Shown here in pieces: positions 38,931 to 64,000 of a DNA stretch of 64,000 nt; the stretch's first letter is position 1, and each line of letters begins with the position of its first letter. This stretch comes from Alphaproteobacteria bacterium (lineage in GTDB: Bacteria; Pseudomonadota; Alphaproteobacteria; UBA828), in assembly GCA_965237415.1 (NCBI GenBank), contig CBDEFM010000002.1, positions 1,824,001 to 1,888,000 of the forward strand. Reading direction: 5' to 3'. The notes beneath the pieces were generated by a model. It saw nothing but the letters and a program-made list of their open reading frames with translations. It did no database searches and was not told where the DNA came from. Made by a program: the position numbers and the translations under genes.

Positions 38931-38966
38931 TACGGTAAGATCGGAGCAATCGGGGAGATTTTGGTC

Positions 38967-39611: not shown

Positions 39612-40449
39612 TCCCCAATGGATCGTCGGTAAGTACGCGCTGATGAACGTCCGCGCGCTGAGCCGGCGCGGGCGCACGGAGATCGACCCGCTCTGCTGGC
39701 GCATTCCCTTCCAGTGGCAGGGCTATCACTACCAGGATCACGACGACCAGCCCTTCATGCTGCTGGTGAACAGCGGCGGCGGCTTCGTCGAGGGCGATGT
39801 CGCGCACTTCCACGGCGTGCTGGAGCCCGGCACGCGCGCCCTCTTCACTACCACGGCATCGAGCAAGTTCTACAAGTGCCCGGGCGGCGCCGTGTCGCGC
39901 GAGATCGTCGATCTCCATGTCGGCGAAGACGCGCTTCTGGAGTTCTGTCCGGACGAGGCGATCCCCTTCGCCCGCAGCCGGGCGCATCGGATCAACCGGA
40001 TCGACATGGCGCCGTCGTCCCGGCTCTTCGCCACCGATATGATTTCGGCCGGGCGTGTGCACTACGGCGCGGGCGAGATCTTCCGCTTCGACCATCTGAT
40101 CTCCGAGTTCCGCATCACCATCGGCGGCCGCCTGGCCGCACTCGACCGCCTGGTTGCGACCGCGCCCGAGACCATCGCCGCGCTCGAGCGGCTGTGGCTG
40201 GGGCGGCTGCACATGGCGACGGCCTTTGCTTATGCACCGGTTCTCGCGCCCGGCGTCGAGGACGGCGTTCACGAGGCCATCGACGGTGTGGACGGCACCG
40301 AGGCGGGCGTCACCCGCATCGGCAACCTGGTGATCGTCCGTATCCTGAGCCACGAGACGTGGCAGGCCCACGAGGCGCTCTTCAACGCGTGGACCGCGCT
40401 CCGCCCTGCCATCGCAGGCAAGAGCGCGCGCCCGATACGCAAGTGCTAG
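39580..40449 (+). CDS. ureD: Urease accessory protein UreD
   Basis: [28 protein letters not shown]-terminal RK; position in the cluster. Confidence 0.88.
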
Positions 40450-47593: not shown

Positions 47594-48100
47594 ATGAAGT
47601 TTCGCCACGAGTTCCGCGTGCGGGAGAGCAGCGACAAGGTCTGGCGCTTCTTCGAGAGTCCGCTGGACGTCGCGCGCTGCATCCCCGGCGTCGAAGCGGT
47701 GGAGCCGATCGAGGACGGCGATGACAGCTATTCCGTCCGCGCGACCCAGAAGCTGGGTCCCATGTCGGCGACCTTTCAGGCCAAGGTTCGCATCACCGAG
47801 CGCGTCCACGGAGAACGGATCGAATTCACCGCGACGGGCAAGGCGGTGCGCGGCGCGGTCGGCAACTTCAGGGCCCAGAACGCGGTCACGCTCATACCGG
47901 AAGGCGACGAAACCTGCGTCGCGGTGGAGGGCGAGGTCGCGCTGGCCGGCGTGCTCGGCACTGTCGGAAGCGCGGTGATCAACAAGCAGGCCGCAAAGAC
48001 GACCGCCGCGTTCGCCTGCAACCTGGAGCAAGCGCTATCGGCTGCGGGAGAGCCGCGCGCCGGATCCCAGTCGGAGGAGACCGTCGTTGAGCGGGAATGA
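47594..48100 (+). CDS. CoxG/SRPBCC family protein
   Basis: VW..F..P..VARCIPG; located inside the Mo-hydroxylase cluster. Confidence 0.85.
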   Translation: MKFRHEFRVRESSDKVWRFFESPLDVARCIPGVEAVEPIEDGDDSYSVRATQKLGPMSATFQAKVRITERVHGERIEFTATGKAVRGAVGNFRAQNAVTLIPEGDETCVAVEGEVALAGVLGTVGSAVINKQAAKTTAAFACNLEQALSAAGEPRAGSQSEETVVERE

Positions 48101-48596
48101 GCGCGCGATCAGCTTCCGGCTGAACGGAGACCCGGTGTCGGCGGACGCGCCCACCCGCATGCACGCGGCCGACTTCCTGCGCCATCGCCTGGGCTGGACC
48201 GGCACCCACGTCGGTTGCGAGCAGGGCGTCTGCGGCATGTGCACGATCCTGGTCGACGGCGCCGCGATCAAGTCCTGCTTGATGCTCGCGGTGCAGTTGG
48301 ACGGCGCGGACGTGCTAACGGTCGAATCCCTGGCCGAGGACGACCGCCTCAATGACGCGCAAGACGCCTTCAAGAGGCACCACGCGCTGCAATGCGGCTA
48401 CTGCACGCCCGGCTTCCTCATGGTGGCGGTGAGCCTGAAGGCCAGCGGGCGCACGCTCTCCCGCGCGGAGGTCCGGGAGGAGCTCGCCGGTGTCCTCTGC
48501 CGCTGCACCGGCTACGAGAACATCCTGCGTGCGGTGGAGGATTATCTGGGCGCGGACCGCGTCAAGGAGCCGCCCGATGGCGAGGTATCGCGGTGA
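48087..48596 (+). CDS. Mo-hydroxylase 2Fe-2S subunit (CoxS type)
   Basis: GCEQGVCGMCT, QCGYCTPG, LCRCTGY. Confidence 0.95.
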   Translation: MSGNERAISFRLNGDPVSADAPTRMHAADFLRHRLGWTGTHVGCEQGVCGMCTILVDGAAIKSCLMLAVQLDGADVLTVESLAEDDRLNDAQDAFKRHHALQCGYCTPGFLMVAVSLKASGRTLSRAEVREELAGVLCRCTGYENILRAVEDYLGADRVKEPPDGEVSR

Positions 48597-50965
48597 GCAG
48601 GTCGCGCCAGAGCCTGATCGGCGCAGCCCTCACGCGCAAGGAGGACGATCGTCTGCTGCGGGGCGACGGTCTCTTCACCGATGACGTGCACCTCGCCCAC
48701 CAGCTTGAGATGGCGGTCGGCCGCTGCCCTTTCCCCCGCGCCGCGATTGGCGCGATCGACGTGGCGCAAGCCCGCGCCGTGCCCGGCGTCCGTCACATTT
48801 TGACGGGTGCCGACGTGCGGGCCGCGAGCGGGCCGCTGACGGTTCTGAGGCCGGTGCCCGGCGCGCCGTTGCTGCCCTACTACGCGCTGGCGGCCGAGCA
48901 GGCGATCCACGAGGGCCAGCCGGTGGTGAGCGTGGTCGCGACGAGCCGCGCGATTGCAGAGGACGCGCTGGACCTCATCGACATCGACTACGAGCCGCTG
49001 CCGCATGTGACGGACACGCTGGGCGCGCTCGCCGACGACGCACCGGTTCTGCATCCCGAGACGCTGACGTCGAACCTGCTGGCGAGCAACGTGGACCGCG
49101 CGGGCGATCCGGAGGATCGCATGGTCGCCGCCGAGGTCGTCGTCGAGGGGCGCTTCCGTGTGAACCGGGTGAGCGCGCTCCCCATGGAGCCGCGCGGTAT
49201 CGTCGCCCATTGGCGGGCAGGCGCGCGCACGCTGGAGGTCCATGCCTCCACCCAGACGCCGCACTTGATCCGGCAGCAGTTGGCGGAGTGCCTGCCGCTC
49301 GATGAGGGGTGCATTCGGGTCATCGCATCCGATGTGGGCGGCGGCTTCGGCATGAAACTCGGCCTCTATCCGGAGGACGTGCTGGCGGTGCTGCATGCGA
49401 TGGCGCTGCGACGACCGGTCAAGTGGATCGAAGACCGCCTGGAGTTCTTCCGCGCCAGCACCCATGCGCGCGAGGCCGTGCACGACGTCCAGATCGGTGC
49501 GGAGGCCGATGGTCGCATCGTCGCGATTACCAACCAGTACACCACCGACCTGGGCGCCTGGAACTCGACGTACGGCTCGGCGCAGCTCTCGAGCGTGGTC
49601 TTCACCGGCCCCTACAAGGTGGCCGATGCAGCCGTCGAGCGCCGCGTCGCGCTCACCAACAAGACCCCGATCGGGGCCTATCGCGGCTACGGTCAGCCGG
49701 AAGTCAATTTTGCGCTGGAGGTCCTCATCGACCGGCTGGCGCGCCGCCTGAAGATCGACCCGCTGGAACTGCGCCGGAAGAACATGTTGCGGCCGGAAGA
49801 TCTGCCCTGGACCACGCCGAGCCGGGCCGTCTACGACAGCGGCGACTATCTGAAGACCCTGGAGATGGCCGCCGAGGCCGTCGATTACGACGCGCATCGC
49901 GCCGGCCGCCGGGAAGACCGGGGCGAGGGGCGGTTGACGGGCATCGGCTTCGCCTCCTTCGTCGAGCGCACGGGTTATGCCAGCGCGCGCTTCCTCGCGG
50001 GCCGTGGCTCACGCTTCGGCGCCCACGAGAGCGTGATCCTGCGGGCGAACCGCTCCGGCGGCATCGACCTCTACACCGGCGTCTCGACCTTCGGCCAGGG
50101 GAGCGAGACGGCGTTCGCCCAGATCTGCGCCGAGGTCTTCGGCATCGACTACGAGGCGATCCACGTCCATGCCGGCGACAGCGGAGCATCGCCCCTCAAC
50201 ACCGGCGCCTTCGCCTCGCGCACCCTGATCGCGGCTGCCGGCGCCATCCGCGAGGCCGCGGACGCGCTCCGCAACAAGACCCTGCGCATCGCGGCCATGG
50301 TCCTGCAATCGACGCCGGAGGCGCTGGAGGTAAGCAGCCGCGCCGTCCGCGTCCGCGACGAGCCTGGGCGCACCGTCCCCCTCGCCGAGATCTTCACCCG
50401 GGCGATCATCGGGCAGGGTATTCCGGAGAGCGAGGAGCCGGGTCTCGACGCGACCGCGCACTTCGAGCCCTCGCACGCGGCGTTCTCGTTCGGGACCGCC
50501 GCCGCCGTCGTCTCGGTCGATCCCGAGAGCGGCGCGTTCGACGTGGAGCGCTTCGTCATGGCCCACGACTGCGGCGTCGCGGTCAACCCGCCCCTGGTGG
50601 AGGGCCAGGTGCGCGGCGGCCTGGTGCAGGGGCTCGGCGCGGCGCTGGCGGAGGAGCTTCGCTACGACGAGGGCACCGGCCAGCTCGTGAGCGGCAGCAT
50701 GCTGGATTACTTCGCGCCGACCATCATGGATGTCCCGCGCATCGACCTGGTGCACACGGAGGTTCCGTCCCCGGTCACGACCTTCGGGGTCCGTGGCGTC
50801 GGCGAGGTCGGCACGATCCCGCCGGCGGCAGCGGTCACCAACGCCGTCTGCGACGCGCTGGCGGACTTCGGCGTGGAATTCTCGGACCTGCCGCTGACCC
50901 CGGAGCGCGTCTGGCAGGCGCTGTCGCAGGCGAGGGACGCCCGCGCGGCCCGCGCGCCACGATGA
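48593..50965 (+). CDS. Xanthine dehydrogenase-family molybdopterin large subunit
   Basis: VGGGFGMK, AYRGYGQPE, GQGSET, GQVRGG, RGVGE; not the CODH form I motif AYxCSFR. Confidence 0.93.
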   Translation: MSRSRQSLIGAALTRKEDDRLLRGDGLFTDDVHLAHQLEMAVGRCPFPRAAIGAIDVAQARAVPGVRHILTGADVRAASGPLTVLRPVPGAPLLPYYALAAEQAIHEGQPVVSVVATSRAIAEDALDLIDIDYEPLPHVTDTLGALADDAPVLHPETLTSNLLASNVDRAGDPEDRMVAAEVVVEGRFRVNRVSALPMEPRGIVAHWRAGARTLEVHASTQTPHLIRQQLAECLPLDEGCIRVIASDVGGGFGMKLGLYPEDVLAVLHAMALRRPVKWIEDRLEFFRASTHAREAVHDVQIGAEADGRIVAITNQYTTDLGAWNSTYGSAQLSSVVFTGPYKVADAAVERRVALTNKTPIGAYRGYGQPEVNFALEVLIDRLARRLKIDPLELRRKNMLRPEDLPWTTPSRAVYDSGDYLKTLEMAAEAVDYDAHRAGRREDRGEGRLTGIGFASFVERTGYASARFLAGRGSRFGAHESVILRANRSGGIDLYTGVSTFGQGSETAFAQICAEVFGIDYEAIHVHAGDSGASPLNTGAFASRTLIAAAGAIREAADALRNKTLRIAAMVLQSTPEALEVSSRAVRVRDEPGRTVPLAEIFTRAIIGQGIPESEEPGLDATAHFEPSHAAFSFGTAAAVVSVDPESGAFDVERFVMAHDCGVAVNPPLVEGQVRGGLVQGLGAALAEELRYDEGTGQLVSGSMLDYFAPTIMDVPRIDLVHTEVPSPVTTFGVRGVGEVGTIPPAAAVTNAVCDALADFGVEFSDLPLTPERVWQALSQARDARAARAPR

Positions 50966-51941: not shown

Positions 51942-53957
51942 ATGCCGAATGGATGGCAAGTCGGTATCGATGTCGGCGGTACGTTTACCGACGTGATCGC
52001 CGTGCACCGGGCGCGCGGCGAGGTGAGAGCCGCGAAGGTTCCCTCCCGCACCGACGATCGCATCGCCGGACTGGTGTCAGCGCTCGGCGCGGTCGATCTC
52101 GCTTGGTCGGACGTGGACGATCTGATCCACGGCACGACCATCGTCACCAACGCCATCATCCAAGGCGACCACGCCAACGTCGCGCTGATCGCAACCCGAG
52201 GGTTCTCGGACACGCTCGCAATCGGGCGCCAGAACCGGCGCCACCTCTACCGGCTCGACCTGCCGCCCAAGCTCACGCCCCAGGTCCCCGCCGAGCGCCG
52301 CTTCGAGGTGACCGAGAGGCTCGACCACGACGGCCGGGTCCTGGTCGCGCTGGACCCGGCGTCGGTCGAAGACGCGATCGGGCGCGTCGCGGCGAGTGGT
52401 GCGGAGGCGGTTGCCGTGTCGCTTCTCCATTCTTACGCCAACCCTGCCCACGAGGAGGCGTTGGGCGAGCGCCTGCGCGCAAGGGTCCCCTACGTCGCGC
52501 TCTCGCACCGGGTCAATCCCGAGGCCCGGGAGTACGAGCGTACGGCGACGACGGCACTCAGCGCCGGAGTCATGCCGCTGGCGGCGGCGTATATGGATGA
52601 TCTGGACAGGGCAAAGCCGGAGGAATCCCGGCTGCACCTCTTCCATTCTGCCGGCGGCATGGCATCGCCCGCGGCCTTGCGCGATCTGCCGCTCGGCCTC
52701 GCCGCCTCGGGCCCTGCCGCCGGCGTCGCTGCGGCGGGCCGCATGGCGCGTGCGCTCGGGATCGAGCGTGCCATCAGCTTCGACATGGGCGGCACCACCA
52801 CCGATGTCTGCCTGATCCTCGACGGCGAGGCGCAGATCGCGAGCGACCGCTCCCTCGGCGGACGGCCTTTGCGCCAACCCATGGTCGCCGTGGAGTCCAT
52901 CGGCGCGGGCGGCGGGTCCATCGCCCGGTTGGATCACGGCTCCCTGCTCGTGGGGCCCGAGAGCGCCGGCGCCGAACCCGGACCCGCCTGCTACGCCAAG
53001 GGCGGCGACCGGCCCACCGTGACCGACGCCAATCTGGTGCTCGGATATATGGACGTGGAGCGCGTCCTCGGCGGAAACGTACGCCTCGATGCGGCTCTCG
53101 CCCACGATGTCATCGCACCGCTGTCTGAGGCGATGCACATGACGCGGGAGGCTGCGGCGCTGGGGGTCGTCAAGGTCGCCAACGCGGCCATGCTGCGGGC
53201 GCTGCGTCGGGTCACCGTGGAGCGCGGCGTCGACGGGCGCACCTGCACCCTCCTCGCCTTCGGCGGCGCAGGCCCCATGCACGCGGTGGCGTTGGCCCGC
53301 GCCTTCTCCATCGACAAGGTGGTCGTCCCTGCCCACTCCAGCATGTTCTCCGCCCTCGGCTGCGTCGGCGCTGAGATGAGCTACGCGCAGCAGCGCACGC
53401 TGCGGGTCGCCTCGGACGCGTGGGACGGCGAACGCGTGGACCGGGCACGGCGGGAGCTCCGCTCGACCCTCGCTGCCCCCATACAGGCGGCCGGCCATGA
53501 CGACGACCATCTAACGGTCGAGGAGGTGGCGTCGATCCGCTACCGGGGCCAGAGCTACGCCATCGAGATCGCGGGCGCCGCCTTCGACGATCCGGTGCGC
53601 CTGGGCCGCGCCTTCATGGACCGCCATCGGACGCTCTATGGCTTCGCCACGGAGGAGCCGTGGGAGCTGGAGTCGATCCGGGTGCGAGTCTCGGCGCCCC
53701 GCAACGGCGAGGCCCATCTGCCTGCCGCCAAGACCAACGAAGCCCCCTCACTCACCAAGATGTTCCGGTGCACGTTCGGCGCCGGCGAAGCCACGATGAC
53801 GCCGCGCTACGACCGCGCGGGCTTGGGTGCCGATTGCCCGCTGGAGGGGCCGGTCATCGTCGATGACGCATGGTCGACCGTCGTCGTGCCGCCCGGCGCG
53901 ACGCTGACCGCCGACGCCGCCGGTCATCTTCACATCGCCACCGGGATCGAGCCATGA
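51942..53957 (+). CDS. Hydantoinase A / oxoprolinase family ATP-binding subunit
   Basis: IDVGGTFTD, HGTT, SGPAAG, DMGGTTTD, GAGGGS, GPESAGA.PGPACY. Confidence 0.93.
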   Translation: MPNGWQVGIDVGGTFTDVIAVHRARGEVRAAKVPSRTDDRIAGLVSALGAVDLAWSDVDDLIHGTTIVTNAIIQGDHANVALIATRGFSDTLAIGRQNRRHLYRLDLPPKLTPQVPAERRFEVTERLDHDGRVLVALDPASVEDAIGRVAASGAEAVAVSLLHSYANPAHEEALGERLRARVPYVALSHRVNPEAREYERTATTALSAGVMPLAAAYMDDLDRAKPEESRLHLFHSAGGMASPAALRDLPLGLAASGPAAGVAAAGRMARALGIERAISFDMGGTTTDVCLILDGEAQIASDRSLGGRPLRQPMVAVESIGAGGGSIARLDHGSLLVGPESAGAEPGPACYAKGGDRPTVTDANLVLGYMDVERVLGGNVRLDAALAHDVIAPLSEAMHMTREAAALGVVKVANAAMLRALRRVTVERGVDGRTCTLLAFGGAGPMHAVALARAFSIDKVVVPAHSSMFSALGCVGAEMSYAQQRTLRVASDAWDGERVDRARRELRSTLAAPIQAAGHDDDHLTVEEVASIRYRGQSYAIEIAGAAFDDPVRLGRAFMDRHRTLYGFATEEPWELESIRVRVSAPRNGEAHLPAAKTNEAPSLTKMFRCTFGAGEATMTPRYDRAGLGADCPLEGPVIVDDAWSTVVVPPGATLTADAAGHLHIATGIEP

Positions 53958-55549
53958 ATGGCGCTATCGATCCGGTGACCCTGGAGGTGATCCGCCACGC
54001 CCTGACGGCGACGGCGGAGGAAATGTCGCTCGTGGTCATGCGCTCGGCGCGCTCGCCGCTGCTGCGCGAGGCGGGCGATCTCTCGTCCGCGCTCACCGAT
54101 GCAGACGGCCACCTCATCGCCCAGGGCCGCGACATCCCGATGCACATGGGGGTCATGAGCTTCACCGTCCGCGAGTTCCTGAAGCGGGTGCCCAAGGCAC
54201 AGCTGGAGCCCGGCGACGTATGGTTCCTCAATCTGCCGGAAGTCGGCGGCAACCACTTGCCCGACGTGAAGGCGATCCGGCCGATCTACGCGGAGGGTGA
54301 GATCGTCGCCTTCGCGGAAAGTCTCGCCCATTGGGCGGATATCGGCGGCGCCGTGCCCGGCAGCTATGTCGCCGGCGCCACGGACGCGTGGCAGGAGGGG
54401 CTCCGCATTCCGCCCTTCCGGCTCTTCACCGCAGCGGGCCCCGACCGCGAAAAGCTCGACATGATCTGCGCCAACGTGCGGGGCGCAGACGAGCGCGAGG
54501 GCGACATTCTGGCGCAGCTCGCAGCCAGCCGGGCCGCGGAGGAGCGCGTGCACCACATCGTCGCCGAGCATGGCAGGGAGACGGTGTTGGACGCCATCGC
54601 CGCGATCCACGACCGGGCCGAGGCGCAGATGCGGGCGGCGCTCGCGGCGATTCCCGACGGCACCTATAGGGGCGAGGACTGGCTCGACGACGATGCCGGC
54701 GGAGGCGGGCCGGTTGCCGTTCGCGTTCTGGTGACGATCGAAGGCGACCGGGCGCGCTTCGATTTTTCCGAGACCGACGACGCGGCGCGAGGGCCCTTGA
54801 ACACCACGCCCTTCATCGCCGCGGCGTCCGTCTTCTATGTGGTCAAGACCCTGTTCGGGCCCGACATCCAGCCGAGCGGCGGCTGCTACCGCCCGCTTGA
54901 GATCGTGACCCGTCCCGGCTCCCTGCTCGATCCGTCCCCCGAAAGCCCCGTGGTGGGCGGCAATCACGAAACCTCGCAACGGATCGCCGACGCCGTGTTC
55001 AAGGCCCTCGAAGCCACCGGGCCGGAGCGCATTTCCGCCGGCGGGCCGACTACGTCGGGGCTGGTGCTCTTCGGCGGACGACGGGCCGACGGCGCCTGGA
55101 CCACCCTCTACGAGGTCCATGGCGGCGGCGAGGGCGCGCGGCACGACCGCGACGGTGCGCCGGTGGTGCGCGTTCACATGTCCAACGTGATGAACACCCC
55201 GGCCGAGGTGGTGGAAGCCGAATACCCCATCCGTATCGAATGCCAGCGCCTGCGCCAGGGCTCGGGCGGCGCGGGCCGGCGGCAAGGTGGCGAAGGCCTG
55301 CACCGCGAGTATCGCGTGCTCACCGACGACATGTCGGTCACCTCCATGTTCGAGCGCCGTGTGGTGCCGCCCTACGGCCTGCAAGGCGGCGACGACGGTG
55401 CGCCCTTCCGGGTCACCATCGACCACGCGGACGGCCGCCGCTCGGTGATGCCGGGCAAGGCGAACCTCCGGCTCGGCACCGACGACGTGGTCATCGTCGA
55501 GAGCTGCGGCGGCGGCGGTTACGGCGAGCCGGAACCGACAGGCCAGTGA
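53954..55549 (+). CDS. Hydantoinase B / oxoprolinase family subunit
   Basis: DPVTLEV, HLPD, HWADIGG.VPGS, QEGLRIPP, NTPAE, GGGGYG. Confidence 0.93.
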   Translation: MNGAIDPVTLEVIRHALTATAEEMSLVVMRSARSPLLREAGDLSSALTDADGHLIAQGRDIPMHMGVMSFTVREFLKRVPKAQLEPGDVWFLNLPEVGGNHLPDVKAIRPIYAEGEIVAFAESLAHWADIGGAVPGSYVAGATDAWQEGLRIPPFRLFTAAGPDREKLDMICANVRGADEREGDILAQLAASRAAEERVHHIVAEHGRETVLDAIAAIHDRAEAQMRAALAAIPDGTYRGEDWLDDDAGGGGPVAVRVLVTIEGDRARFDFSETDDAARGPLNTTPFIAAASVFYVVKTLFGPDIQPSGGCYRPLEIVTRPGSLLDPSPESPVVGGNHETSQRIADAVFKALEATGPERISAGGPTTSGLVLFGGRRADGAWTTLYEVHGGGEGARHDRDGAPVVRVHMSNVMNTPAEVVEAEYPIRIECQRLRQGSGGAGRRQGGEGLHREYRVLTDDMSVTSMFERRVVPPYGLQGGDDGAPFRVTIDHADGRRSVMPGKANLRLGTDDVVIVESCGGGGYGEPEPTGQ

Positions 55550-55582: not shown

Positions 55583-56365
55583 GTGAAAGTGGATGGCAAG
55601 AAGGCGATCGTCACCGGCGCCGCGAAGGGCATGGGCGCGGCCATCACCACGACGCTGGCACGCGAGGGCGCCGACGTCGTGCTCACGGCCCGCGAGACCG
55701 ACGCGCTCGATCGGGTTGCCGGGGATGTCCGCGCGCTCGGGCGCGAGGCCCACGTCGTAGCCTGCGATGTCACCGACGATGCGCAAGTGAAGGCAATGGT
55801 CGATCGGGCGCTCGCGGCCTTCGACGGGCGCATCGACATTCTGGTCAATATCGCCGGCGTCACCGGCCCCATCGAGACGCCGGTGCAGGATATTGACGTG
55901 GCCGACTTCGACTACGTCATCACGGCCAACGAAATCGGTACCTTCCTGCCCATCAAGTATGTGGTGCCGACCATGATCGCGCAGAGGAGCGGCAAGATCG
56001 TCAATATCGGCGGCACGTCGGGCCTGCGCGGCTACGCCATGCGGACCGCCTACAGCGCGTCCAAATGGGCGGTGCGCGGGATTACCCGCACGGTCGCGCT
56101 CGAGGTCGGCAAGTACAACGTCAACGTCAACGCTGTCTGCCCCGGCATCGTCGAGACGCCGCGCATGCAGAAGCTCTGCGAGGAGAAAGCCAGAGTGCGC
56201 GGCTGGACGATCGACCAAGTGTACGACGAATACGTTCAGGAGATGTGCCTGAAGCGTGTGACCACGCCGGACGACGTGGCCAACGCCGTGTTGTTCATGG
56301 CGAGCGAGGACAGCCGCCAGATCACCGGCCAGGCCATCACGGTCGACGGCGGCTGGGACGTGTGA
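55583..56365 (+). CDS. SDR family oxidoreductase
   Basis: TGAAKGMG, YSASK, VNAVCPG. Confidence 0.92.
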   Translation: MKVDGKKAIVTGAAKGMGAAITTTLAREGADVVLTARETDALDRVAGDVRALGREAHVVACDVTDDAQVKAMVDRALAAFDGRIDILVNIAGVTGPIETPVQDIDVADFDYVITANEIGTFLPIKYVVPTMIAQRSGKIVNIGGTSGLRGYAMRTAYSASKWAVRGITRTVALEVGKYNVNVNAVCPGIVETPRMQKLCEEKARVRGWTIDQVYDEYVQEMCLKRVTTPDDVANAVLFMASEDSRQITGQAITVDGGWDV

Positions 56366-56399: not shown

Positions 56400-57287
56400 A
56401 TGTACACGCCGTTCGAGTTGGACATTCCGAACGACCTGGCCGGCGCTCTGGCGGCCCTCGCCAACGGTGCCGGCGAGACCGTTCTGCCCCTTGCCGGGGG
56501 CACGAACCTCATCGTCGACATTCGCGCCAAGCGCGAGCGGCCCGACCGGATGGTGGGCCTCGGCGAGGTCGACGAGTTGCTTGGCATGGACTTCGGAGCA
56601 GAGCGCATAACCATCGGCGGTCGCACCACGGTGAGCGACCTCCTGCGCTCGCCCGAGATCGCCCGGGCGGCGCCGTCGCTGATCGAGTCCGCCCGACTCT
56701 TCGGCGGCCTGATGGTGCGCAACACCGGGACTGTCGCCGGGAACATCGCGAGCGGCTCGCCCGCGGCGGATCTGGTGCCGCCGCTTCTCGCTCTCGATGC
56801 CGAGCTGACGCTGGTGAGTGCGTCGTCCACGCGCACGTTGGCGTTGGATGACTATTACCTCGGCTACAAACAGGATGCGCGGCGGCGGGACGAGCTGATC
56901 ACCCGGATTTCCTGGCCGCACCTGCCCGAGAATTCCGTCAACACCTTCTACAAGCTGGCCCGCCGCAAGGGCGATGCGATTACCGTCACCGGCGTGGCAG
57001 TGACGCTGGCGGCCGCGGGCGGCCGCTGCACCAAGGCGCGGATCGCACTTGGGGCCGTCGCGCCCATCGTCTTCCGCGCCAAGGAGGCCGAGGCGCTGCT
57101 GGAGGGCGAGGCGCTGACGCCGACGCTGATCGACGAAGCAGCGGCAGTGGCGGTATCCGCGTGCAGCCCCATCGACGATATCCGGGCTTCGGCCGACTAC
57201 CGCCGCCATACGGCCCAGGCCCTGACACGGCGACTGGTTGCCCAAGCGTGGGATCGGCTCGCCCAGGGGAGTAACGCGCATGCCTGA
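56400..57287 (+). CDS. Mo-hydroxylase FAD subunit
   Basis: LAGGTNL, VRNTGTVAGN, SPAAD, PIDDIRASADYR. Confidence 0.92.
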   Translation: MYTPFELDIPNDLAGALAALANGAGETVLPLAGGTNLIVDIRAKRERPDRMVGLGEVDELLGMDFGAERITIGGRTTVSDLLRSPEIARAAPSLIESARLFGGLMVRNTGTVAGNIASGSPAADLVPPLLALDAELTLVSASSTRTLALDDYYLGYKQDARRRDELITRISWPHLPENSVNTFYKLARRKGDAITVTGVAVTLAAAGGRCTKARIALGAVAPIVFRAKEAEALLEGEALTPTLIDEAAAVAVSACSPIDDIRASADYRRHTAQALTRRLVAQAWDRLAQGSNAHA

Positions 57288-57768
57288 CGAACGGACCATC
57301 ACACTCCGCATCAACGGCCGCGAGGAGGAAGGGCGCTTCCCCGCGCATCGCACGCTGTTGGAAGCGCTGCGGCAGCTCGGGCACATGGAAGTGAAGTGCG
57401 GTTGCGAGAAGGGCGATTGCGGCGCCTGCGCCGTGCTGCTTGACGGCATGGCCGTGGACAGCTGCCTGACCGTGGCCTGGATGGCGGCCGGCAAGGAGGT
57501 CACGACCATCTCCGGCCTCGGCGACCTCGATTCGCCCCATCCCTTGCAGCAGGCGTTTGCCGAAACCGGTGCCGCGCAGTGCGGCTACTGCATTCCAGGC
57601 ATCATCATCGCGGCGAAGGCGATCATCGACGAGAACCCGGAGCCCCGCGAAGACGACATCCGCTTAGGTCTCAGCGGCAATCTCTGCCGCTGCACCGGCT
57701 ACACCAAGATCTTCGAGGCCATCGCCGACGCGGCCGCCGCGATGCGCGCCGAGGGAGGTGAGCAATGA
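57280..57768 (+). CDS. Mo-hydroxylase 2Fe-2S subunit
   Basis: GCEKGDCGAC, QCGYC, GNLCRCTGY. Confidence 0.95.
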   Translation: MPDERTITLRINGREEEGRFPAHRTLLEALRQLGHMEVKCGCEKGDCGACAVLLDGMAVDSCLTVAWMAAGKEVTTISGLGDLDSPHPLQQAFAETGAAQCGYCIPGIIIAAKAIIDENPEPREDDIRLGLSGNLCRCTGYTKIFEAIADAAAAMRAEGGEQ

Positions 57769-60089
57769 CCCACACCGACATCGACGCAGGCGCGCTGGCC
57801 AACGTCCAATACCGGCAGATCGGCAAGCCGCTCACCCGCACCGACGCGCCAGGCAAGGTTACGGGCCGCACGCCCTATGCCGGCGATTACGTGATGCCCA
57901 ACATGCTGCACATGCGGGTGCTCCGCGCCGACATCGCGAGCGCCCGTCTCGTGCGTCTCGATGTCTCGAAGGCGCGGGCGCTCAAGGGCGTCGCCAGCGT
58001 GCTCACCGCCACCGATCTCGCCGACCGCACGGCGGCCACCGACATCCCCGGCCAGACCGGCCAGAAGAGGCTGGATACGGATCAGCCGGTTCTGGTGAAG
58101 GAGCGGGTCCGCTATTTCGGCGAGCCACTGGCGTTGATTGCTGCTGAAACCCGCGATCTCGCCGACCGGGCGGCGGACTTGATCGAGTTCGAGCTTGAGC
58201 CGATCCCTGGCGTCTACGACCCGCTGGAAGCGCTGCAGCCCGGCGCGCCGCTCGTCTACGGCAGCGACAACATCGTCGCCGAGCGCAAGATCAAGAAGGG
58301 CGATGTCGAGGCGGGCTTCGCCAAGGCCGACCTCATCGTCGAGAACACCTACAAGACACCCTTCCAGGAGCACGCCTTCCTGGAGCCGGAGGTCGGCCTC
58401 GCCTGGGTGGATGAGAACGACGTGGTCAACATCCGCGTCTCGACCCAGGTCATCGAGCACTTCCGGCCGATCGCCGATGCCATCGGCGTGCCGCACAACA
58501 AGGTCCGCGTGCGCGGCGCGCTGGTCGGCGGCGGCTTCGGCGGCAAGGAGGACATGACCGTTGAGGTCTATCTGGCGTTGCTTGCCAAGCACACCGGGCG
58601 GCCGGTGCGGCTGGAATACTCCCGCGAGGATTCCTTCGTGGGCCACGGCAAGCGTCACCCCTTTATCCTGACCTACCGCACGGGCGTCACGAAGGAGGGC
58701 AAGATCACGGCGCTCGACGTGCAGATGATCGCCGATGCCGGCGCCTACGTGTTCCTGAGCCCCTACGTCATCCTCTACGCGCTGGTCGCAGCACCCGGCC
58801 CCTACCGCGTCGACAACCTCAATGTCTTCGCCCGGGCCGTGGCGACCAACAACATGTACACCAGCGCCTTCCGAGGCTTCGGCGCGTTGCAGGCCTGCAC
58901 GGCCTACGAGCAGCAGATGGACGAGATCGCCGAGACGCTCGGCATCGATCGCCTGGAGCTCAGACGGCGGAATTTCCTGAAGACCGGCGAGCCCATGTCC
59001 ACGGGTTTCGTGCCGCCGAGCGCCATCTGGACCGAGCAGTGCGCGGAGAAGGCCTGGGCCGCGCTCGGCGAGCCCACGCCGGCGGAGGGGCCGATACGGA
59101 CAGGCCGCGGCCTTGCCTGCTATCAGCAGAGCTACGGGCGCCTCACCTTCCTGCACGACACCTCGGAGGCCTGGGTCGGCGTCGAGATGGACGGCACCGT
59201 TGTGGTGCGCTCCGGCGTCACCGACATCGGCGCCGGGCAAATTTCGGCGCTGGGCCAGATCGCGGTGGAGGTGCTGGGCGTCACCCTCGACAACGTGGTC
59301 ATCTACAGCAGCGATTCCGCGGTGACCCCGCTCGCCGGCACGACCACGGCGACACGCGCGCTCTACATGACCGGCAACGCCGCCAAGCAGGCGGCCGAGG
59401 GGCTTCGCGCCCGGCTCGCCGAACGCGCGGCGCAGGAATTCGGCGTCGCCCCCGACGAGATCGACATGGGCTTCAACGAGGTCTTCGTCATCGATAAGCC
59501 TGAAGCATCCATGCCCCTCGTCGACCTGGTGCGCATCTGCGCGGCCGAGGGCATCCACCGCTCCGAGCTCGCAATCTTCCGCGCGCCGTTCGGCGAATTT
59601 CTCGACCCCGAGACGGGCCAGGGTCAGGCCCATCCCGACTATGCCTACGGCGCGCATGCCGTCGAAGTCTCCGTCGATGTGGAGACCGGCGAGGTCGAGG
59701 TGCTGAAGAGCGTGGCCGCTCACGATGTCGGCCAGTGCATCAATCCGGCGGCGGTCGAGGGCCAGATCCAGGGCGGCGCGCAGAACGGCCAGGGCTACGC
59801 GCTCAGCGAAGAGATGCTCTACGAGGAGGGCCGCCTGGTGACGCCGTCGTTCAGCGAATACCTCATGCCGACCGCGATGGACATGCCGAAGGTCGAGTGC
59901 ATCATCCTCGAATCCCGCAGCGGCGTGGGCCCCTTCGGCGCAAAGGGCATCGGCGAGCCGGCCATGACCGCCGTCGCACCCGCCATCGCCAACGCCGTCG
60001 CCGATGCCATTGGCGTGCGCGTCTTCGAGATGCCGATCACGCCGGAGCGCGTGGTCCGGGCGTTGAAGCGGCGCGATGCCCCGCAATGA
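57765..60089 (+). CDS. Xanthine/nicotinate dehydrogenase-family molybdopterin subunit
   Basis: EHAFLEPE, VGGGFGGK, AFRGFG, EGQIQGG, GAKGIGE. Confidence 0.93.
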   Translation: MTHTDIDAGALANVQYRQIGKPLTRTDAPGKVTGRTPYAGDYVMPNMLHMRVLRADIASARLVRLDVSKARALKGVASVLTATDLADRTAATDIPGQTGQKRLDTDQPVLVKERVRYFGEPLALIAAETRDLADRAADLIEFELEPIPGVYDPLEALQPGAPLVYGSDNIVAERKIKKGDVEAGFAKADLIVENTYKTPFQEHAFLEPEVGLAWVDENDVVNIRVSTQVIEHFRPIADAIGVPHNKVRVRGALVGGGFGGKEDMTVEVYLALLAKHTGRPVRLEYSREDSFVGHGKRHPFILTYRTGVTKEGKITALDVQMIADAGAYVFLSPYVILYALVAAPGPYRVDNLNVFARAVATNNMYTSAFRGFGALQACTAYEQQMDEIAETLGIDRLELRRRNFLKTGEPMSTGFVPPSAIWTEQCAEKAWAALGEPTPAEGPIRTGRGLACYQQSYGRLTFLHDTSEAWVGVEMDGTVVVRSGVTDIGAGQISALGQIAVEVLGVTLDNVVIYSSDSAVTPLAGTTTATRALYMTGNAAKQAAEGLRARLAERAAQEFGVAPDEIDMGFNEVFVIDKPEASMPLVDLVRICAAEGIHRSELAIFRAPFGEFLDPETGQGQAHPDYAYGAHAVEVSVDVETGEVEVLKSVAAHDVGQCINPAAVEGQIQGGAQNGQGYALSEEMLYEEGRLVTPSFSEYLMPTAMDMPKVECIILESRSGVGPFGAKGIGEPAMTAVAPAIANAVADAIGVRVFEMPITPERVVRALKRRDAPQ

Positions 60090-60109: not shown

Positions 60110-60871
60110 ATGGCCGATAGCAACGACAAGCCGCTCGGGCGATACATCCGGGTGCTTGAGACGGTGGCCGCCGCGCGAACCGGGCTCACGCTCACGGACA
60201 TCGCCAAGGAGCTCGAACTGCAACCGGGAACGGCACATCGCCTGATCCGCGGCCTCCTGGACCTCGACCTGTTGCGCAGCGCGCCTGGCACCAAGAGCTA
60301 CGTGACCGGGCCTCGCCTGCAAACCCTCCTCCACGCGACCATGGACGGCGCCGGCTATGCGGGGCTGGCGAAGTCGGTGCTGGACGGGCTCGTTGCGGAG
60401 TTCGGCGAGACCGCGCATCTGGCCCGGCTGAACGGCGACTTCGCCGAGTCCGTGCTGATGGAGCAGCCCGTGGGCTCCGACCGCGCCTTCGTGCAGCCGG
60501 GCCGGCAACTGCCGTTGCACGCGGCGGCCTCCGGCAAGGCGATCCTGGCGTTCCAGGACGAGGAGTTCGTCGCGCGCTACCTCTCGCGCCCGCGCACGCG
60601 CTACACGGAGAAGACCAGGGTCGGGGAAGCGGAGATCCGCACTGAGCTCGGTCAAATCCGCGCGGACGGCATGGCGGTATGCGACAACGAACTCGATGCC
60701 GGCGTGCTGAGCTACGGACATCCGATCCGGGTGAGCAGCGGCTATGTCGTCTATTCGGTCGGCATCACCGGCCTCGCGGACCGCTTCCGCCCCATGGAAC
60801 GAACCCGGATCAAGCAGAAGTTATCCGAGGCGGCGGCCGACCTCGGCAGGAGGCTCGGATTTACGAGCTGA
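60110..60871 (+). CDS. IclR family transcriptional regulator
   Basis: HTH (LTDIAKEL...TAHRL), ETAHL, PLHAAASGKAILA. Confidence 0.92.
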   Translation: MADSNDKPLGRYIRVLETVAAARTGLTLTDIAKELELQPGTAHRLIRGLLDLDLLRSAPGTKSYVTGPRLQTLLHATMDGAGYAGLAKSVLDGLVAEFGETAHLARLNGDFAESVLMEQPVGSDRAFVQPGRQLPLHAAASGKAILAFQDEEFVARYLSRPRTRYTEKTRVGEAEIRTELGQIRADGMAVCDNELDAGVLSYGHPIRVSSGYVVYSVGITGLADRFRPMERTRIKQKLSEAAADLGRRLGFTS

Positions 60872-60883
60872 TGGGAGTTCGCG

Positions 60884-61822
60884 ATGGTTGACGCACGCTT
60901 GGCAGAGATTATTCGGAATTGCCGGAACGGTACGGGAAGCAACTGCGGCGGATATCTGGAACCCACCGCCACGGGCCAACCGGGGGCCTACATCTCGACG
61001 ATCTTGCTATCGACGGGCAGTGTGAACCTTGAACAATTTCCAGGTTACCCATTCGACGAGGACTTAGACCAGGGCATGGCCAAAATCGTGTCCTACGATC
61101 GCGCCGAATGTAACGATTCCTATATCGGTCAAATCAATATGTTGCAGGCGTCGTCGTTCAGCGGCGTTAACGGAGCGATATGGGGCTACGACCTGGCAAT
61201 CGAACCCCGCATCGGGAAGACGTATCCTGTCGGCCGTATCGAGAATATACCCATCTACTCCCTCATTCCCTTACGCGATGCAACCCGGCAGCTCTTTGGA
61301 GTCGCCGAAAACCGGCATTTCCCTCCGCAAGAAGGCGCCATGGTCGTTTGCGCCGAGAAGTACCTCACAAGCGCGGTCTCCGACGGAAATTTGTGGATTT
61401 GGTGCGCTCTCGGGTTCGCGATTGCGGAAGACCGCGATAATCATGCTTGCTTGTTTATGGAAGACACGGGGTCGTTGAGGCTCGGGGAAGACGAAGAACA
61501 GACCGTGCGGCACAAGCTCGACGATAGGCTCAACAGGATCGCCTATGCGGCGTATCTATGCGGCGAGAATCAGGGCGCACGCTACAAGAAGATCTACATC
61601 GGCTGGAAGGCGTCCTACATACCGAAGAATCACGTGGGTTGTGCGCTCGCCTGCGCCCCATACGTGACGCTTCCGTCCGGCGCATTCAAGAACATTACTC
61701 CGGAGACCGACATCCTCGAGCTTTCGACCGAGGACTGGCTATCCAGAGTGGGCTTTTCCGAGGTGGACGAGCCCGACTATGCGCTCAAGACCCTGACCGG
61801 GCCGAATATCCCTCTCCAATAA
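60884..61822 (+). CDS. hdcA: Pyruvoyl-dependent histidine decarboxylase proenzyme homolog
   Basis: IVSYDRAE, YIGQINM..ASSF.G (Ser-Ser cleavage site at 61151-61156), CAEK, FMED.G, APYV; lower GC than its flanks. Confidence 0.85.
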   Translation: MVDARLAEIIRNCRNGTGSNCGGYLEPTATGQPGAYISTILLSTGSVNLEQFPGYPFDEDLDQGMAKIVSYDRAECNDSYIGQINMLQASSFSGVNGAIWGYDLAIEPRIGKTYPVGRIENIPIYSLIPLRDATRQLFGVAENRHFPPQEGAMVVCAEKYLTSAVSDGNLWIWCALGFAIAEDRDNHACLFMEDTGSLRLGEDEEQTVRHKLDDRLNRIAYAAYLCGENQGARYKKIYIGWKASYIPKNHVGCALACAPYVTLPSGAFKNITPETDILELSTEDWLSRVGFSEVDEPDYALKTLTGPNIPLQ

Positions 61823-61918
61823 ACGCGGATTCACGGGCCTAGGGAGAGACATCGTGATCGACGAATTGGGACGCCGGCCGGCGTCCGGCCGGTCTCCTCG
61901 CTGACCGGGAGAGGCACG

Positions 61919-63007
61919 TTGGTCGAGGACAGCATAGCGATCGAGGTACGCGATGCCGTCAAACGCTTCGGCTCGGTGACCGCACTCGCCGGGGCGAGTC
62001 TGACGATCCGGGACAACGAGTTTTTCACGCTGCTCGGGCCTTCGGGCTGCGGCAAGACCACCCTGCTTCGCCTGATCGCAGGCTTTGAGGACATCACCGA
62101 GGGGACGATCCTCCTCTACGGCGAGGAACTCGGCGACCTCCCTCCCAACAAGCGGCCGATCAACACCGTCTTCCAGCACTACGCGCTTTTTCCGCACATG
62201 ACGGTGGCGGAGAACGTGGCCTTCGGCATGCGGAGGCTCGGCTGGAGCAAGGCCGATATCGAGGACCAGACCGCCCGCATCCTCGACCTCGTGAAGCTCG
62301 GCGACCTCGCAGCCCGCAGACCGTCTCAGCTCTCCGGCGGGCAACAGCAGCGGGTGGCACTGGCGCGGGCGATGGCACCTCGGCCCCGGGTGCTGTTGCT
62401 CGACGAGCCGCTGTCCGCGCTCGATCTCAAGCTCCGGCAGGCGATGCGCATCGAGCTGAAGCAGATTCAGAAGGATACCGGCATCACCTTCGTCTTCGTC
62501 ACCCACGACCAGGAAGAAGCACTGACGATGTCGGACCGCATCGCCGTCATGTCGGCGGGCGAGATCCGGCAGATCGGGACGCCGCACGAAATCTATGAGG
62601 CGCCCGTCGACCGCTTCGTGGCCAACTTCATCGGCGAGACCAACGTCCTCGACGTGACCGTGCTGCGGGGGCCGGACGGCGCCTACACGTGCCGCCTGAG
62701 CAACGGCGCGGTGTTTCCGTGCCAAGCCGCCGGCACTCCGTCGGAGGACGGGGCCACCGCGCATGTGCTGATCCGGCCCGAGCGTCTGTCTTTTGTGGCC
62801 GCGGAACAGGGTGATCGCGGCCTCACGGGCGTGGTCGACCAGATCGTCTATCTCGGCACCGACATCCAGTACGGCGTCCGGCTCGACGGAGGGCCCGACG
62901 TCCTGGTCCGGACGCAAAATGCCGGCGAGGACGTGAGGCCTTACCAGTCCGGCGACCGGGTGGGCCTCACCATCGCCCCCGGCGCCGCCCGGCTGCTGGT
63001 GGACTGA
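61919..63007 (+). CDS. Polyamine ABC transporter ATPase (PotA type)
   Basis: GPSGCGKTT, NTVFQHYALFPH, LSGGQQQR, DEPLSALD. Confidence 0.92.
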   Translation: MVEDSIAIEVRDAVKRFGSVTALAGASLTIRDNEFFTLLGPSGCGKTTLLRLIAGFEDITEGTILLYGEELGDLPPNKRPINTVFQHYALFPHMTVAENVAFGMRRLGWSKADIEDQTARILDLVKLGDLAARRPSQLSGGQQQRVALARAMAPRPRVLLLDEPLSALDLKLRQAMRIELKQIQKDTGITFVFVTHDQEEALTMSDRIAVMSAGEIRQIGTPHEIYEAPVDRFVANFIGETNVLDVTVLRGPDGAYTCRLSNGAVFPCQAAGTPSEDGATAHVLIRPERLSFVAAEQGDRGLTGVVDQIVYLGTDIQYGVRLDGGPDVLVRTQNAGEDVRPYQSGDRVGLTIAPGAARLLVD

Positions 63008-63933
63008 TGACGGCCGAGCTCAGCAGCACCAGGGCAGTCTCCCGCACCTTCGCGCCGGTGCGCACCGGATTGCTGATCCCCACCTGGGTGGTGATCGGTT
63101 TCTTCCTCCTGGCCCCGGTGCTGATGATGCTCGTCTACTCCTTTCTGACGAAGGAGTTCCGCGGCGGGGTGATCTGGGAGTTCTCGCTCGCGGCTTACGA
63201 CCAATTCATCTTCGACCGCGGCCTCTTCGGCGACGATCCGCCCAAGATCGAGTGGACGTACATCGTCATCTTCGCACGCTCGATAATTCAGGCCGCCGTT
63301 GCCACCGTCCTCTGCCTCATCATCGGCTTCCCGACCGCATACTTCATCGCCACCCGGTCGCCCGAGACGCGCTCGATCTGGCTCTTCCTGGTCACGGTGC
63401 CCTATTGGGTGAACCTGCTCATCCGCACCGTTTCGATGAAGTTCCTCATCCGCGACAACGGGCCGCTCAACAAAGCCTTGATGGGTCTCGGACTCATCAA
63501 CGAGCCGATCGCGCTCATCAACACCGATTTCGCCGTGCAGCTCGGTCTCTTCTACTCGTACCTGCCCTTCATGGTGCTGCCCATCTATGCATCGGTGGAG
63601 CGTTACGACTTCGCGCTTTCCGAAGCGGCGGCCGACCTCTACGCCGGGCGCTGGACGATCCTCCGCCGGGTGATTCTGCCGATCGTGCGGCCTGGCATCG
63701 TGGCCGGTTGCATACTGGTCTTCGTGCCGAGCCTCGGCGCGTTCCTTGCGCCCGATCTTCTCGGCGGCGCCAAGTCATTCCTGATCGGCTCCCTGATCGA
63801 AGAGCAGTTCAAGGGCAACGCCGGCAATTGGCCGTTCGGCGCGGCCGCGTCGATGATTCTCCTCACTCTCGTGCTGATCGTGCTCTTGATCTATGCGCGC
63901 CGGCAAGCGCGGCGCAGCGCGAAGCAGGGCTGA
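63007..63933 (+). CDS. Polyamine ABC transporter permease (PotB type)
   Basis: PYWVNLLIR, YLPFMVLPIY, EAAADL, NWPFGAA. Confidence 0.92.
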   Translation: MTAELSSTRAVSRTFAPVRTGLLIPTWVVIGFFLLAPVLMMLVYSFLTKEFRGGVIWEFSLAAYDQFIFDRGLFGDDPPKIEWTYIVIFARSIIQAAVATVLCLIIGFPTAYFIATRSPETRSIWLFLVTVPYWVNLLIRTVSMKFLIRDNGPLNKALMGLGLINEPIALINTDFAVQLGLFYSYLPFMVLPIYASVERYDFALSEAAADLYAGRWTILRRVILPIVRPGIVAGCILVFVPSLGAFLAPDLLGGAKSFLIGSLIEEQFKGNAGNWPFGAAASMILLTLVLIVLLIYARRQARRSAKQG

Positions 63934-63934
63934 G

Positions 63935-64000
63935 ATGCGGCGCAGCCTCAATATCAGGCGCTACCCCGGCTTCCTGCCGATGACGATCCTCTGTCTGGTG
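63935..64000 (+). CDS. Probable second permease (PotC type), runs off the window
   Basis: ATG 1 nt after the upstream stop; MRRSLNIRRYPGFLPMTILCLV begins a hydrophobic segment. Confidence 0.6.
   Translation, partial: MRRSLNIRRYPGFLPMTILCLV

Follow-up and report, generated by a model that had tools for sequence, protein, structure and literature searches.

A pyruvoyl histidine decarboxylase family gene in a putative histamine-catabolic operon of an alphaproteobacterial genus

We analysed a 64,000-nt stretch of DNA (hereafter the window) from an Alphaproteobacteria bacterium of the lineage UBA828 (GenBank assembly GCA_965237415.1, contig CBDEFM010000002.1, positions 1,824,001 to 1,888,000), with the focus on a single gene, hdc, whose predicted product belongs to the pyruvoyl-dependent histidine decarboxylases (HDCs). 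Pyruvoyl HDCs are known chiefly from food and gut Firmicutes, which use them to produce histamine and couple them with a histidine/histamine antiporter that serves acid resistance and energy supply. The hdc gene of the window is located instead in an operon that also encodes an ATP-binding cassette (ABC) transporter of the importer type and a homologue of histamine dehydrogenase. Our preferred reading, which we consider fairly probable from sequence data, is that a horizontally acquired decarboxylase, parted from its usual antiporter, was inserted into an older operon for histamine uptake and oxidation, where it would feed histidine into histamine catabolism. What is unusual is the pairing of an HDC with a histamine dehydrogenase, together with an ABC importer in place of the antiporter; no description of an HDC-histamine dehydrogenase operon was found in the literature searched, the coverage of which did not extend to subscription journals.

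The hdc product and the histamine dehydrogenase homologue

The protein encoded by hdc matched the Pfam profile PF02329 with a score of 159.3 bits (cut-off 25; E value 1.6e-46) over profile positions 19–292 of 294, which, at the level of sequence, is far above chance. In comparisons with the Protein Data Bank (PDB), it was aligned with the alpha chain of the HDC of Lactobacillus 30a (1hq6_B; E value 2.2e-23) as well as with the beta chain (E value 8e-4), and the latter alignment stopped exactly at the serine preceding the cleavage point (the beta chain of L. 30a ends with ...TTAS). The pair S90-S91 aligns with Ser81-Ser82 of L. 30a, i.e. with the beta chain end and the alpha chain start of 1hq6; the predicted chains comprise residues 1–90 (beta, approximately 90 aa) and 91–312 (alpha, approximately 222 aa). 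An AlphaFold2 model built from a 60-sequence alignment had a mean predicted local distance difference test (pLDDT) score of 94 and a predicted template modelling (pTM) score of 0.92, and its best Foldseek match was 1pya_B (E value 2.4e-15, TM score 0.82 on the target, root-mean-square deviation 2.3 Å, 222 columns). The next matches were pyruvoyl arginine decarboxylases. With the profile of that family (PF01862), the hdc product scored 18.6 bits, under the threshold of 22.7, and judging from the model these enzymes appear to be only distant structural relatives. An earlier note, made from the sequence alone, had named hdc as a pyruvoyl HDC gene; by profile match and predicted 1pya_B-like fold, it was confirmed that positions 60884..61822 encode a member of this family.

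The Ser-Ser site and the four motifs listed in the same note (YDRAE, CAxK, FxED and APY) could all be read in the translation, namely as Y71-D-R-A-E75, S90-S91-F92 (codons 61151-61159), C156-A-E-K159, F191-M-E-D194 and A258-P-Y260. In an alignment of 10 sequences (A1), which included two proteins scoring above the cut-off of the HdcA equivalog model (TIGR00541), the invariant positions were I68, V69, S70, Y71, D72, R73, E75, S90, S91, F92, C156, A157 and K159, as well as F191, E193, D194, P259 and Y260; S91 was also invariant in a 60-sequence alignment (A3). By alignment with 1hq6, the invariant residues I68, Y71, D72, E75, K159, F191 and E193 correspond to Ile59, Tyr62, Asp63, Glu66, Lys155, Phe195 and Glu197 of L. 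30a, positions whose roles we take, from structural work on the L. 30a enzyme, to be imidazole binding, proton donation, formation of the substrate pocket and catalysis. Conservation of these pocket and cleavage motifs is non-trivial, since only 75 of the 219 full-length family proteins retrieved carry both exact YDRAE and FxED. As judged from its sequence, the hdc product is a divergent member of the family: it scored 157 bits with the NCBIfam model TIGR00541, under the cut-off of 346.65, which was passed by two of the 118 family proteins scanned, P0164 (460.5 bits; 33% identity to the hdc product) and P0178 (581.4 bits; 30% identity).

The operon runs iclR-hdc-potA-potB-potC-potD-histamine dehydrogenase homologue and is preceded by hyuA-hyuB-SDR-Mo enzyme; all these genes lie on one strand and form a 13-gene string, in which SDR stands for a short-chain dehydrogenase/reductase, and the Mo enzyme for the flavin adenine dinucleotide (FAD), 2Fe-2S and molybdenum cofactor (MoCo) subunits of a molybdenum enzyme. 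The last gene, located past the window, closes the operon about 4 kb beyond the window end. Its product, P0122 (approximately 690 aa), gave full-length matches to the histamine dehydrogenases of Nocardioides simplex (3K30, 912.6 bits) and Rhizobium sp. 4-9 (6DE6, 882.6 bits), compared with 546 bits to trimethylamine dehydrogenase (TMADH), and is the best histamine dehydrogenase match in the window's genome, where its closest paralogue scored 722 bits. Residues C66, Y207, H210 and D302 of P0122 were aligned (by a hand count on the alignment) with Cys35 (the residue that links flavin mononucleotide, FMN), Tyr176, His179 and Asp270, and the Cys-rich 4Fe-4S stretch is kept. In one report, Tyr176 and Asp270 are named as members of the catalytic triad of histamine dehydrogenase (PMC10180351); His179 was taken as the equivalent of His174 of the Rhizobium enzyme. 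The same report proposes eight histamine-site residues (Gln65, Ile74, Phe77, Glu79, Asn115, Tyr181, Trp267 and Asp358; PMC10180351), and six of these are kept in P0122 (Q96, I105, F108, E110, W299 and D390).

Distribution and origin of hdc

The hdc gene is present in a single copy in the window's genome. It was detected in 15 of 20 further genomes of the same genus, with 82–99% identity (16 of 21 with the window's genome included), and the same search found it in none of the four other genera of the family and in none of 16 more distant relatives. PF02329 was likewise not found in any of 400 other Alphaproteobacteria genomes, evenly drawn from 308 genera.

At 14 of the 15 genome loci, hdc is flanked by iclR and potA. 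A different arrangement, iclR-potABCD-dehydrogenase-hdc, was observed in G018, where hdc follows the dehydrogenase gene after 26 nt and has its own Shine-Dalgarno (SD) sequence. Another genome, G003, carries the full string hyuAB-SDR-Mo-iclR-potABCD-dehydrogenase without hdc, and the potA-proximal spacer is still recognisably that of the window. The presence or absence of the gene at this locus in relatives, a check suggested by the earlier note, can be read directly: hdc is confined to genomes bearing the operon (16 of 17 with it, 0 of 4 without it). The Mo enzyme orthologue (MoCo subunit) has the same reach, 17 of the 21 genomes, i.e. the 16 with hdc plus G003. The four genomes that lack hdc, the operon and the Mo enzyme include one that is just 62% complete. 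Because G003 has the operon without hdc and G018 has hdc at another position, we conclude that hdc was added to an operon that already existed; it is present at two positions within this operon and nowhere else.

A tree of neighbouring genes, into which 15 of 18 loci were entered (three without full-length neighbours were left out), grouped G003 with G018 (support 97), and the hdc tree otherwise matched it. The hdc copy of G018 is the most divergent one, with a branch of 0.18 as against 0.06 for its neighbours. The gene may have been gained once or twice in the genus (after iclR, and after the dehydrogenase gene). Two copies of the string Mo enzyme-hdc-dehydrogenase were found in G002 (C2:167150-177344 and C7:4500-14665); this double copy possibly comes from a mixed bin (contamination estimate, 7%). 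Of the loci where the dehydrogenase gene is not adjacent, only L016 was examined; there, potD precedes (15458-20667) genes of IS1595, a phage integrase, an IS91-type element and a DDE transposase, which suggests that the operon tail was severed there by mobile elements.

Homologues of histamine dehydrogenase (E ≤ 1e-180) occur in 43 of 401 genomes of the class. Ten such loci from other genera were inspected: pot genes with an identity of 49% or more adjoin in 4 of 10, and hyuAB or the Mo enzyme in none. The genus is rich in paralogues of the TMADH/histamine dehydrogenase family, with up to 7 matches per genome. On contig C1 of the window's genome (G000), two inverted pairs of genes of this family have identical scores (12766-14835 on the + strand with 258466-260535 on the - strand, and 10182-11723 with 261578-263119); the cause is a large inverted duplication or else an artefact of assembly.

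In a family tree of 79 rows, the deeper order of which was not resolved, the hdc clade of the genus (together with one 68%-identical sequence) was sister to a five-sequence clade with a Shimodaira-Hasegawa-like approximate likelihood ratio test (SH-aLRT) support of 100; one member of this sister clade is labelled Theionarchaea. The genus clade is long-branched, and the Firmicutes-type and Rhodobacterales clades are placed elsewhere, so that a Firmicutes donor was ruled out by the tree placement. The designation 'Gram-positive-type' in the earlier note holds as a family label and fails as a statement of descent. On contigs of the sister clade, a pyruvoyl arginine decarboxylase gene was found just downstream in 2 of 3 loci, and a tyrosine-decarboxylase-like gene upstream in one.

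The lower GC content of hdc, already remarked on in the earlier note, was borne out in 400-nt windows (0.54-0.58 over hdc, 0.63-0.72 around it) and at third codon positions (GC3 of 0.70, against 0.84-0.90 for ten neighbouring genes). Among relatives, GC3 of hdc falls into three ranges, 0.69-0.71 (this lineage), 0.74-0.81 (nine loci) and 0.90-0.93 (four loci), whereas that of the neighbouring genes is 0.86-0.91 in this lineage and 0.86-0.98 across relatives. This spread looks like amelioration at different stages. The ratio of nonsynonymous to synonymous divergence (dN/dS) of hdc was 0.07-0.20 in all 10 pairs of five loci, similar to its neighbours, and hdc is therefore under purifying selection and is no relic. 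At synonymous sites, hdc has diverged among relatives two to three times as much as the neighbouring genes (dS of 0.53-1.2 against 0.17-0.58). This high dS and the GC3 range may result from amelioration, from a weaker constraint on codons or from repeated exchange between members of the genus. With its patchy distribution (including the absence from the 400 other genomes of the class and from the operon of G003), its odd composition and a sister clade that is non-proteobacterial by its one label, hdc looks horizontally acquired, in agreement with what had been supposed.

The PF02329 family is small: of 1.84 billion cluster representatives, 289 matched at E ≤ 0.001. Its members carry source names such as Yoonia, Thalassococcus, Roseibium, Palleronia and Arenibacterium (Rhodobacterales among them), as well as Nitrospirae, Deltaproteobacteria, Theionarchaea and a green alga. 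Among 20 plasmid records with a match, 7 come from Rhizobium, Salipiger or Methylocystis, the annotated ones being described as 'histidine decarboxylase, pyruvoyl type'; three of these plasmids, when inspected, showed unrelated and partly insertion sequence (IS)-rich contexts with no histamine dehydrogenase. The family is not limited to Firmicutes, as it also occurs in Rhodobacterales, Nitrospirota, Deltaproteobacteria, a green alga and alphaproteobacterial plasmids, and is common on environmental contigs.

By means of the sister-clade alignment, 80 metagenome loci (L043-L122) were retrieved; two of them come from this genus and have the operon described above. In 41 of the 78 others, the gene immediately upstream, in the same orientation, encodes an APC-family permease (35 of 57 when only loci with at least 1.2 kb of upstream sequence are counted), and in 22 an Orn/Lys/Arg decarboxylase gene is located just downstream of the PF02329 gene; a histamine dehydrogenase homologue was found in the flank of none of the 78. 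Given the 41 loci with a permease, the usual partner of the family is an antiporter-type permease well beyond Firmicutes, and the hdc gene of the window, to judge from these contexts, appears to have lost this partner and gained another. In the typical metagenome layout the permease gene is separated from the decarboxylase gene by a gap of 0-2 nt, and the Orn/Lys/Arg decarboxylase gene, often present downstream, overlaps it; some loci have a pyruvoyl arginine decarboxylase, a phosphatidylserine decarboxylase-like gene or a C69 peptidase nearby. These loci look like multi-decarboxylase islands.

Gene content of the operon and of the window

All genes from position 51942 to the window end are tightly packed on the + strand (Table 1). 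The start codon of hdc lies 12 nt downstream of the iclR stop codon (which ends at 60871), and the spacer carries a GGGAG motif, in line with the SD sequence described in the earlier note. The Pot-type transporter said there to follow hdc does so, with potA and potB in the window and potC and potD reaching or lying beyond it, and the proposed catabolic setting gained support from the histamine dehydrogenase homologue at the end of the same operon. The statement that the Firmicutes partner genes are missing was upheld for two of them, as no APC antiporter and no HisS were found among the window open reading frames and downstream genes scanned with Pfam and NCBIfam; no dedicated model was used for HdcB.

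Table 1. Features of hdc and of the surrounding operon (window positions unless another sequence is named; L029 = G000:C2:1884001-1896000)
Feature	Position	Strand	Basis or remark
hyuA/hyuB-like ATP-dependent lactamase (hydantoinase/oxoprolinase family)	51942..55549	+	PF01968, PF05378, PF02538; upstream in the string in all loci
Short-chain dehydrogenase/reductase (SDR)	55583..56365	+	PF13561, PF00106
Xanthine-dehydrogenase-family molybdenum enzyme, FAD + 2Fe-2S + MoCo subunits	56400..60089	+	Pfam, NCBIfam and PDB searches
IclR-family transcriptional regulator	60110..60871	+	PF09339, PF01614; all NCBIfam equivalog scores under cut-off
iclR-hdc spacer, 12 nt, with GGGAG SD-like motif	60872..60883	+	TGGGAGTTCGCG
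hdc, pyruvoyl-dependent histidine decarboxylase family proenzyme (predicted)	60884..61822	+	312 aa, ATG start
Ser90-Ser91 codons, predicted serinolysis site (Ser91 the prospective pyruvoyl residue)	61151..61156	+	Alignment with L. 30a chain ends
GC-rich imperfect palindrome without T-run, in the 96-nt hdc-potA spacer	61869..61897		Sequence
potA-like ABC ATPase	61919..63007	+	TIGR01187, 381 bits, above cut-off
potB-like ABC permease	63007..63933	+	PF00528; PotB model 237 bits, under cut-off
potC-like permease, start only, extends beyond the window	63893..64000	+
potD-like substrate-binding protein, past the window	L029 ~4825-5829
Histamine dehydrogenase homologue P0122, past the window	L029 5808/5913-7988		Matches to 3k30 and 6de6

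The PotD-family periplasmic binding protein has a signal-peptide-like N-terminus and scores approximately 205 bits to E. coli PotD, which gives no basis for a call of its ligand. A substrate call for the Mo enzyme was also abandoned, its PDB matches being generic (the best one, 4-hydroxybenzoyl-CoA reductase, at 361 bits).

No terminator-like site was found between the genes of the operon, including the hdc-potA spacer, in a promoter/terminator scan of 16 kb; the scan returned one promoter-like and three terminator-like sites, not above shuffled sequences, is uninformative for a GC-rich genome, and is only mildly consistent with a single transcript. Four metatranscriptome runs, all of one study, yielded contigs that covered hdc at 95-99% identity, along with nearly the whole 19-kb stretch. 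One of them spans the iclR/hdc junction (L027 12708-13041), and others extend from hdc into the spacer before potA. Since such contigs reveal neither strand nor level nor the ends of transcripts, and may stem from DNA carry-over, they represent a weak hint that hdc is transcribed, with reading through the iclR/hdc junction.

Several other genes of the window deserve mention. An amidohydrolase (511 aa) and an amidase (510 aa) are encoded within 29103-33635, with a FAD-dependent monooxygenase (372 aa) on the opposite strand; these are the enzyme classes needed for imidazole-4-acetate breakdown by the Hin route (see below), a likeness at the level of enzyme class. A complete urease cluster (gamma, beta and alpha subunits, UreF, UreG and a UreD-like protein) occupies 35053-40449, upstream of the catabolic string. 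A second large subunit of the xanthine dehydrogenase family (857 aa, approximately 30% identical to that encoded by 57765-60089) follows a CoxG-like gene within 47594-50965, and a Mutator-family transposase gene (408 bits to PF00872) is present at 24623-25819 on the - strand.

Possible roles of hdc and comparison with known systems

According to our preferred reading, the 312-aa proenzyme would cleave itself between Ser90 and Ser91, the N-terminus of the alpha chain becoming the pyruvoyl cofactor, and the resulting enzyme would convert cytoplasmic L-histidine into histamine. The co-encoded histamine dehydrogenase, of the 6-S-cysteinyl-FMN/4Fe-4S type, would then produce imidazole-4-acetaldehyde and ammonium; the PotABCD-type importer may deliver external histamine to the same dehydrogenase, and the IclR protein probably controls the operon. 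The decarboxylase would be reused as the entry step of a decarboxylation-first histidine route in a genus mostly without the urocanase (Hut) route. The first three of these steps are suggested by homology and gene order, and we infer self-cleavage, the substrate, the direction of flux, co-regulation and the fate of the aldehyde. A catabolic role is favoured because a histamine dehydrogenase homologue ends the operon; this corresponds to the option 'feeding a catabolic route' of the earlier note, the one that the evidence favours. Urocanase (PF01175) was found in 3 of the 21 genomes of the genus (G003, G006 and G007) and not in that of the window (96% complete). In G003, which has no hdc, a histidine ammonia-lyase match (569 bits) adjoins the urocanase gene (hutH + hutU).

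Several observations weigh against this reading. The activity, self-cleavage and substrate of the predicted decarboxylase are deduced only from its sequence, which falls below the HdcA equivalog cut-off and is approximately 30-33% identical to the proteins passing it. In P0122, two of the eight histamine-site residues are changed, Asn115 to His (H146) and Tyr181 to Leu (L212), and the counterpart of Tyr181 in the Rhizobium enzyme, Phe176, is described as intolerant of substitution (PMC10180351). With two pocket residues altered, the amine oxidised by P0122 could be an analogue of histamine. Furthermore, 7 of the 13 loci that reach past potD have no dehydrogenase gene next to it (6 of the 13 do; two of the 15 loci were too short to show the gene after potD). 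The seven genomes in question each carry a dehydrogenase homologue of 71-74% identity elsewhere, one of which, when tested, scored 878 bits to 3K30, and a histamine dehydrogenase homologue with 71% identity or more is present in every hdc-bearing genome of the genus. The pattern of hdc and urocanase is suggestive and not clean, since the two are not strictly complementary (hdc occurs alone in 14 genomes and urocanase alone in 1, 2 have both genes, and 4 lack the two of them), and related genomes are non-independent observations. Finally, no enzyme for the step from the aldehyde to imidazole acetate was identified, and a histamine importer beside a histamine-making enzyme is no obvious design.

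The changed residues of P0122 also speak for an alternative that we consider unlikely, in which the chemistry is the same and the substrate is a methylated, thiolated or otherwise modified histidine derivative, with the transporter and dehydrogenase handling the matching amine. The score of the hdc product under the HdcA cut-off and the position of the long-branched genus clade apart from characterised HdcA would fit this explanation. So would the presence of both motifs in just 75 of the 219 family proteins, which indicates that the family is probably not uniform in function, and the different substrate of 6-hydroxypseudooxynicotine dehydrogenase, which is 48% identical to histamine dehydrogenase (PMC5500553). 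It is opposed by the fact that the hdc product shows no change at any position aligned with the substrate pocket of L. 30a, and that, among solved relatives, the two histamine enzymes (883-913 bits) are by far the nearest to P0122. Histamine might also be made for release, as a signal to the host or to neighbours, in which case the position in the operon would provide only expression or product-level control. The loci without an adjacent dehydrogenase gene would be compatible with such a role, and histamine is a known inter-kingdom signal (PMC8231116); we nevertheless regard release as quite improbable, as there is no exporter or antiporter beside hdc, the ABC transporter encoded next to it includes a PotD-family periplasmic binding protein, the mark of an importer, and all hdc-bearing genomes of the genus possess the at least 71% identical dehydrogenase homologue. 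Host signalling, the other role envisaged in the earlier note, thus found no support, with an importer-type system adjacent to hdc and the oxidase of its product co-encoded.

The foreign composition of hdc, the empty site in G003 and the IS-rich, unrelated plasmid contexts of the family in cultured Alphaproteobacteria might be taken as signs of a selfish or neutral insertion into a permissive intergenic spot, with no functional tie to the neighbours. Such an insertion is hard to reconcile with the occurrence of hdc at two different positions of one operon (after iclR and after the dehydrogenase gene), its restriction to operon-bearing genomes (16 of 17 against 0 of 4), the match between its tree and that of its neighbours and the strong purifying selection acting on it, and we give this explanation little credence. 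Another role, the consumption of cytoplasmic protons for pH homeostasis, resembling acid resistance and free of an antiporter, appears highly improbable to us. Decarboxylation does use up a proton, which is established chemistry, and most other family members adjoin an APC permease; at the hdc locus, however, there is no antiporter, and the product would accumulate unless oxidised, which leads back to catabolism. Acid resistance in its classical form is unlikely because an hdcP-type antiporter is missing at hdc, which agrees with the role other than acid resistance anticipated in the earlier note.

The preferred reading, feeding of histidine into histamine catabolism, could be extended to the whole 13-gene string, which would then constitute an undescribed route from histidine to central metabolism replacing Hut, with the Mo enzyme, SDR and HyuAB oxidising the aldehyde and hydroxylating and opening the ring via a hydantoin-like intermediate. 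This extension is supported by the co-occurrence of the Mo enzyme and hdc (17 and 16 of 21 genomes) and by the fixed gene order, and weakened by the lack of hyuAB or the Mo enzyme at the 10 dehydrogenase loci of other genera; we assign it only a small chance. The roles of the upstream Mo enzyme as an aldehyde oxidoreductase or ring hydroxylase, and of HyuAB as a ring-opening lactamase, are speculation.

The linkage of hdc to an importer and a dehydrogenase predicts a physiology opposite to that of the Firmicutes systems, in which histamine would be a passing intermediate of histidine breakdown and not the end product. If true, bacteria would have a further histidine catabolic route, one that starts with decarboxylation, the operon would illustrate how a decarboxylase gained by horizontal transfer can take on new partners, and caution would be called for in counting each metagenomic PF02329 gene as a marker of histamine secretion. 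The locus would also supply two candidates for use in histamine biosensing, namely a divergent HDC and a histamine dehydrogenase whose pocket is altered at two residues.

Compared with HdcA of Lactobacillus 30a and other Firmicutes (PDB 1PYA and 1HQ6; TIGR00541), the hdc product shares the Pfam family, the predicted fold and the Ser-Ser site, and the equivalents of Ile59, Tyr62, Asp63, Glu66, Lys155, Phe195 and Glu197 are pocket and catalytic positions common to both; the gene of the window belongs to a separate tree clade and is part of an amine-catabolic operon, not of an antiporter module. The environmental modules of a decarboxylase and an APC antiporter have the enzyme family in common with it, at 40-50% identity to the window protein. 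From the histamine dehydrogenases 3K30 and 6DE6, P0122 differs by the substitutions of Asn115 and Tyr181 to His and Leu, respectively, and the literature consulted on both enzymes does not mention a decarboxylase gene beside them (their own loci were not examined).

A functional parallel is the Hin pathway of histamine catabolism in Pseudomonas putida U and P. aeruginosa, which comprises the HinA permease, the HinC aminotransferase, the HinD aldehyde dehydrogenase and HinFLHG (PMC8231116). The task shared with the operon described here would be histamine uptake and conversion through imidazole-4-acetaldehyde and imidazole-4-acetate to aspartate (PMC8231116); the 13-gene route, if real, would stand in for the flavin monooxygenase route (HinF-G) of Pseudomonas. 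As far as that source goes, Hin relies on an APC permease for uptake, an aminotransferase for deamination and a LysR-type regulator, whereas the corresponding components here are a PotABCD-type ABC system, a flavin/iron-sulfur dehydrogenase and an IclR-type regulator, and the Hin pathway is without a decarboxylase, whereas here a predicted histidine decarboxylase is built in.

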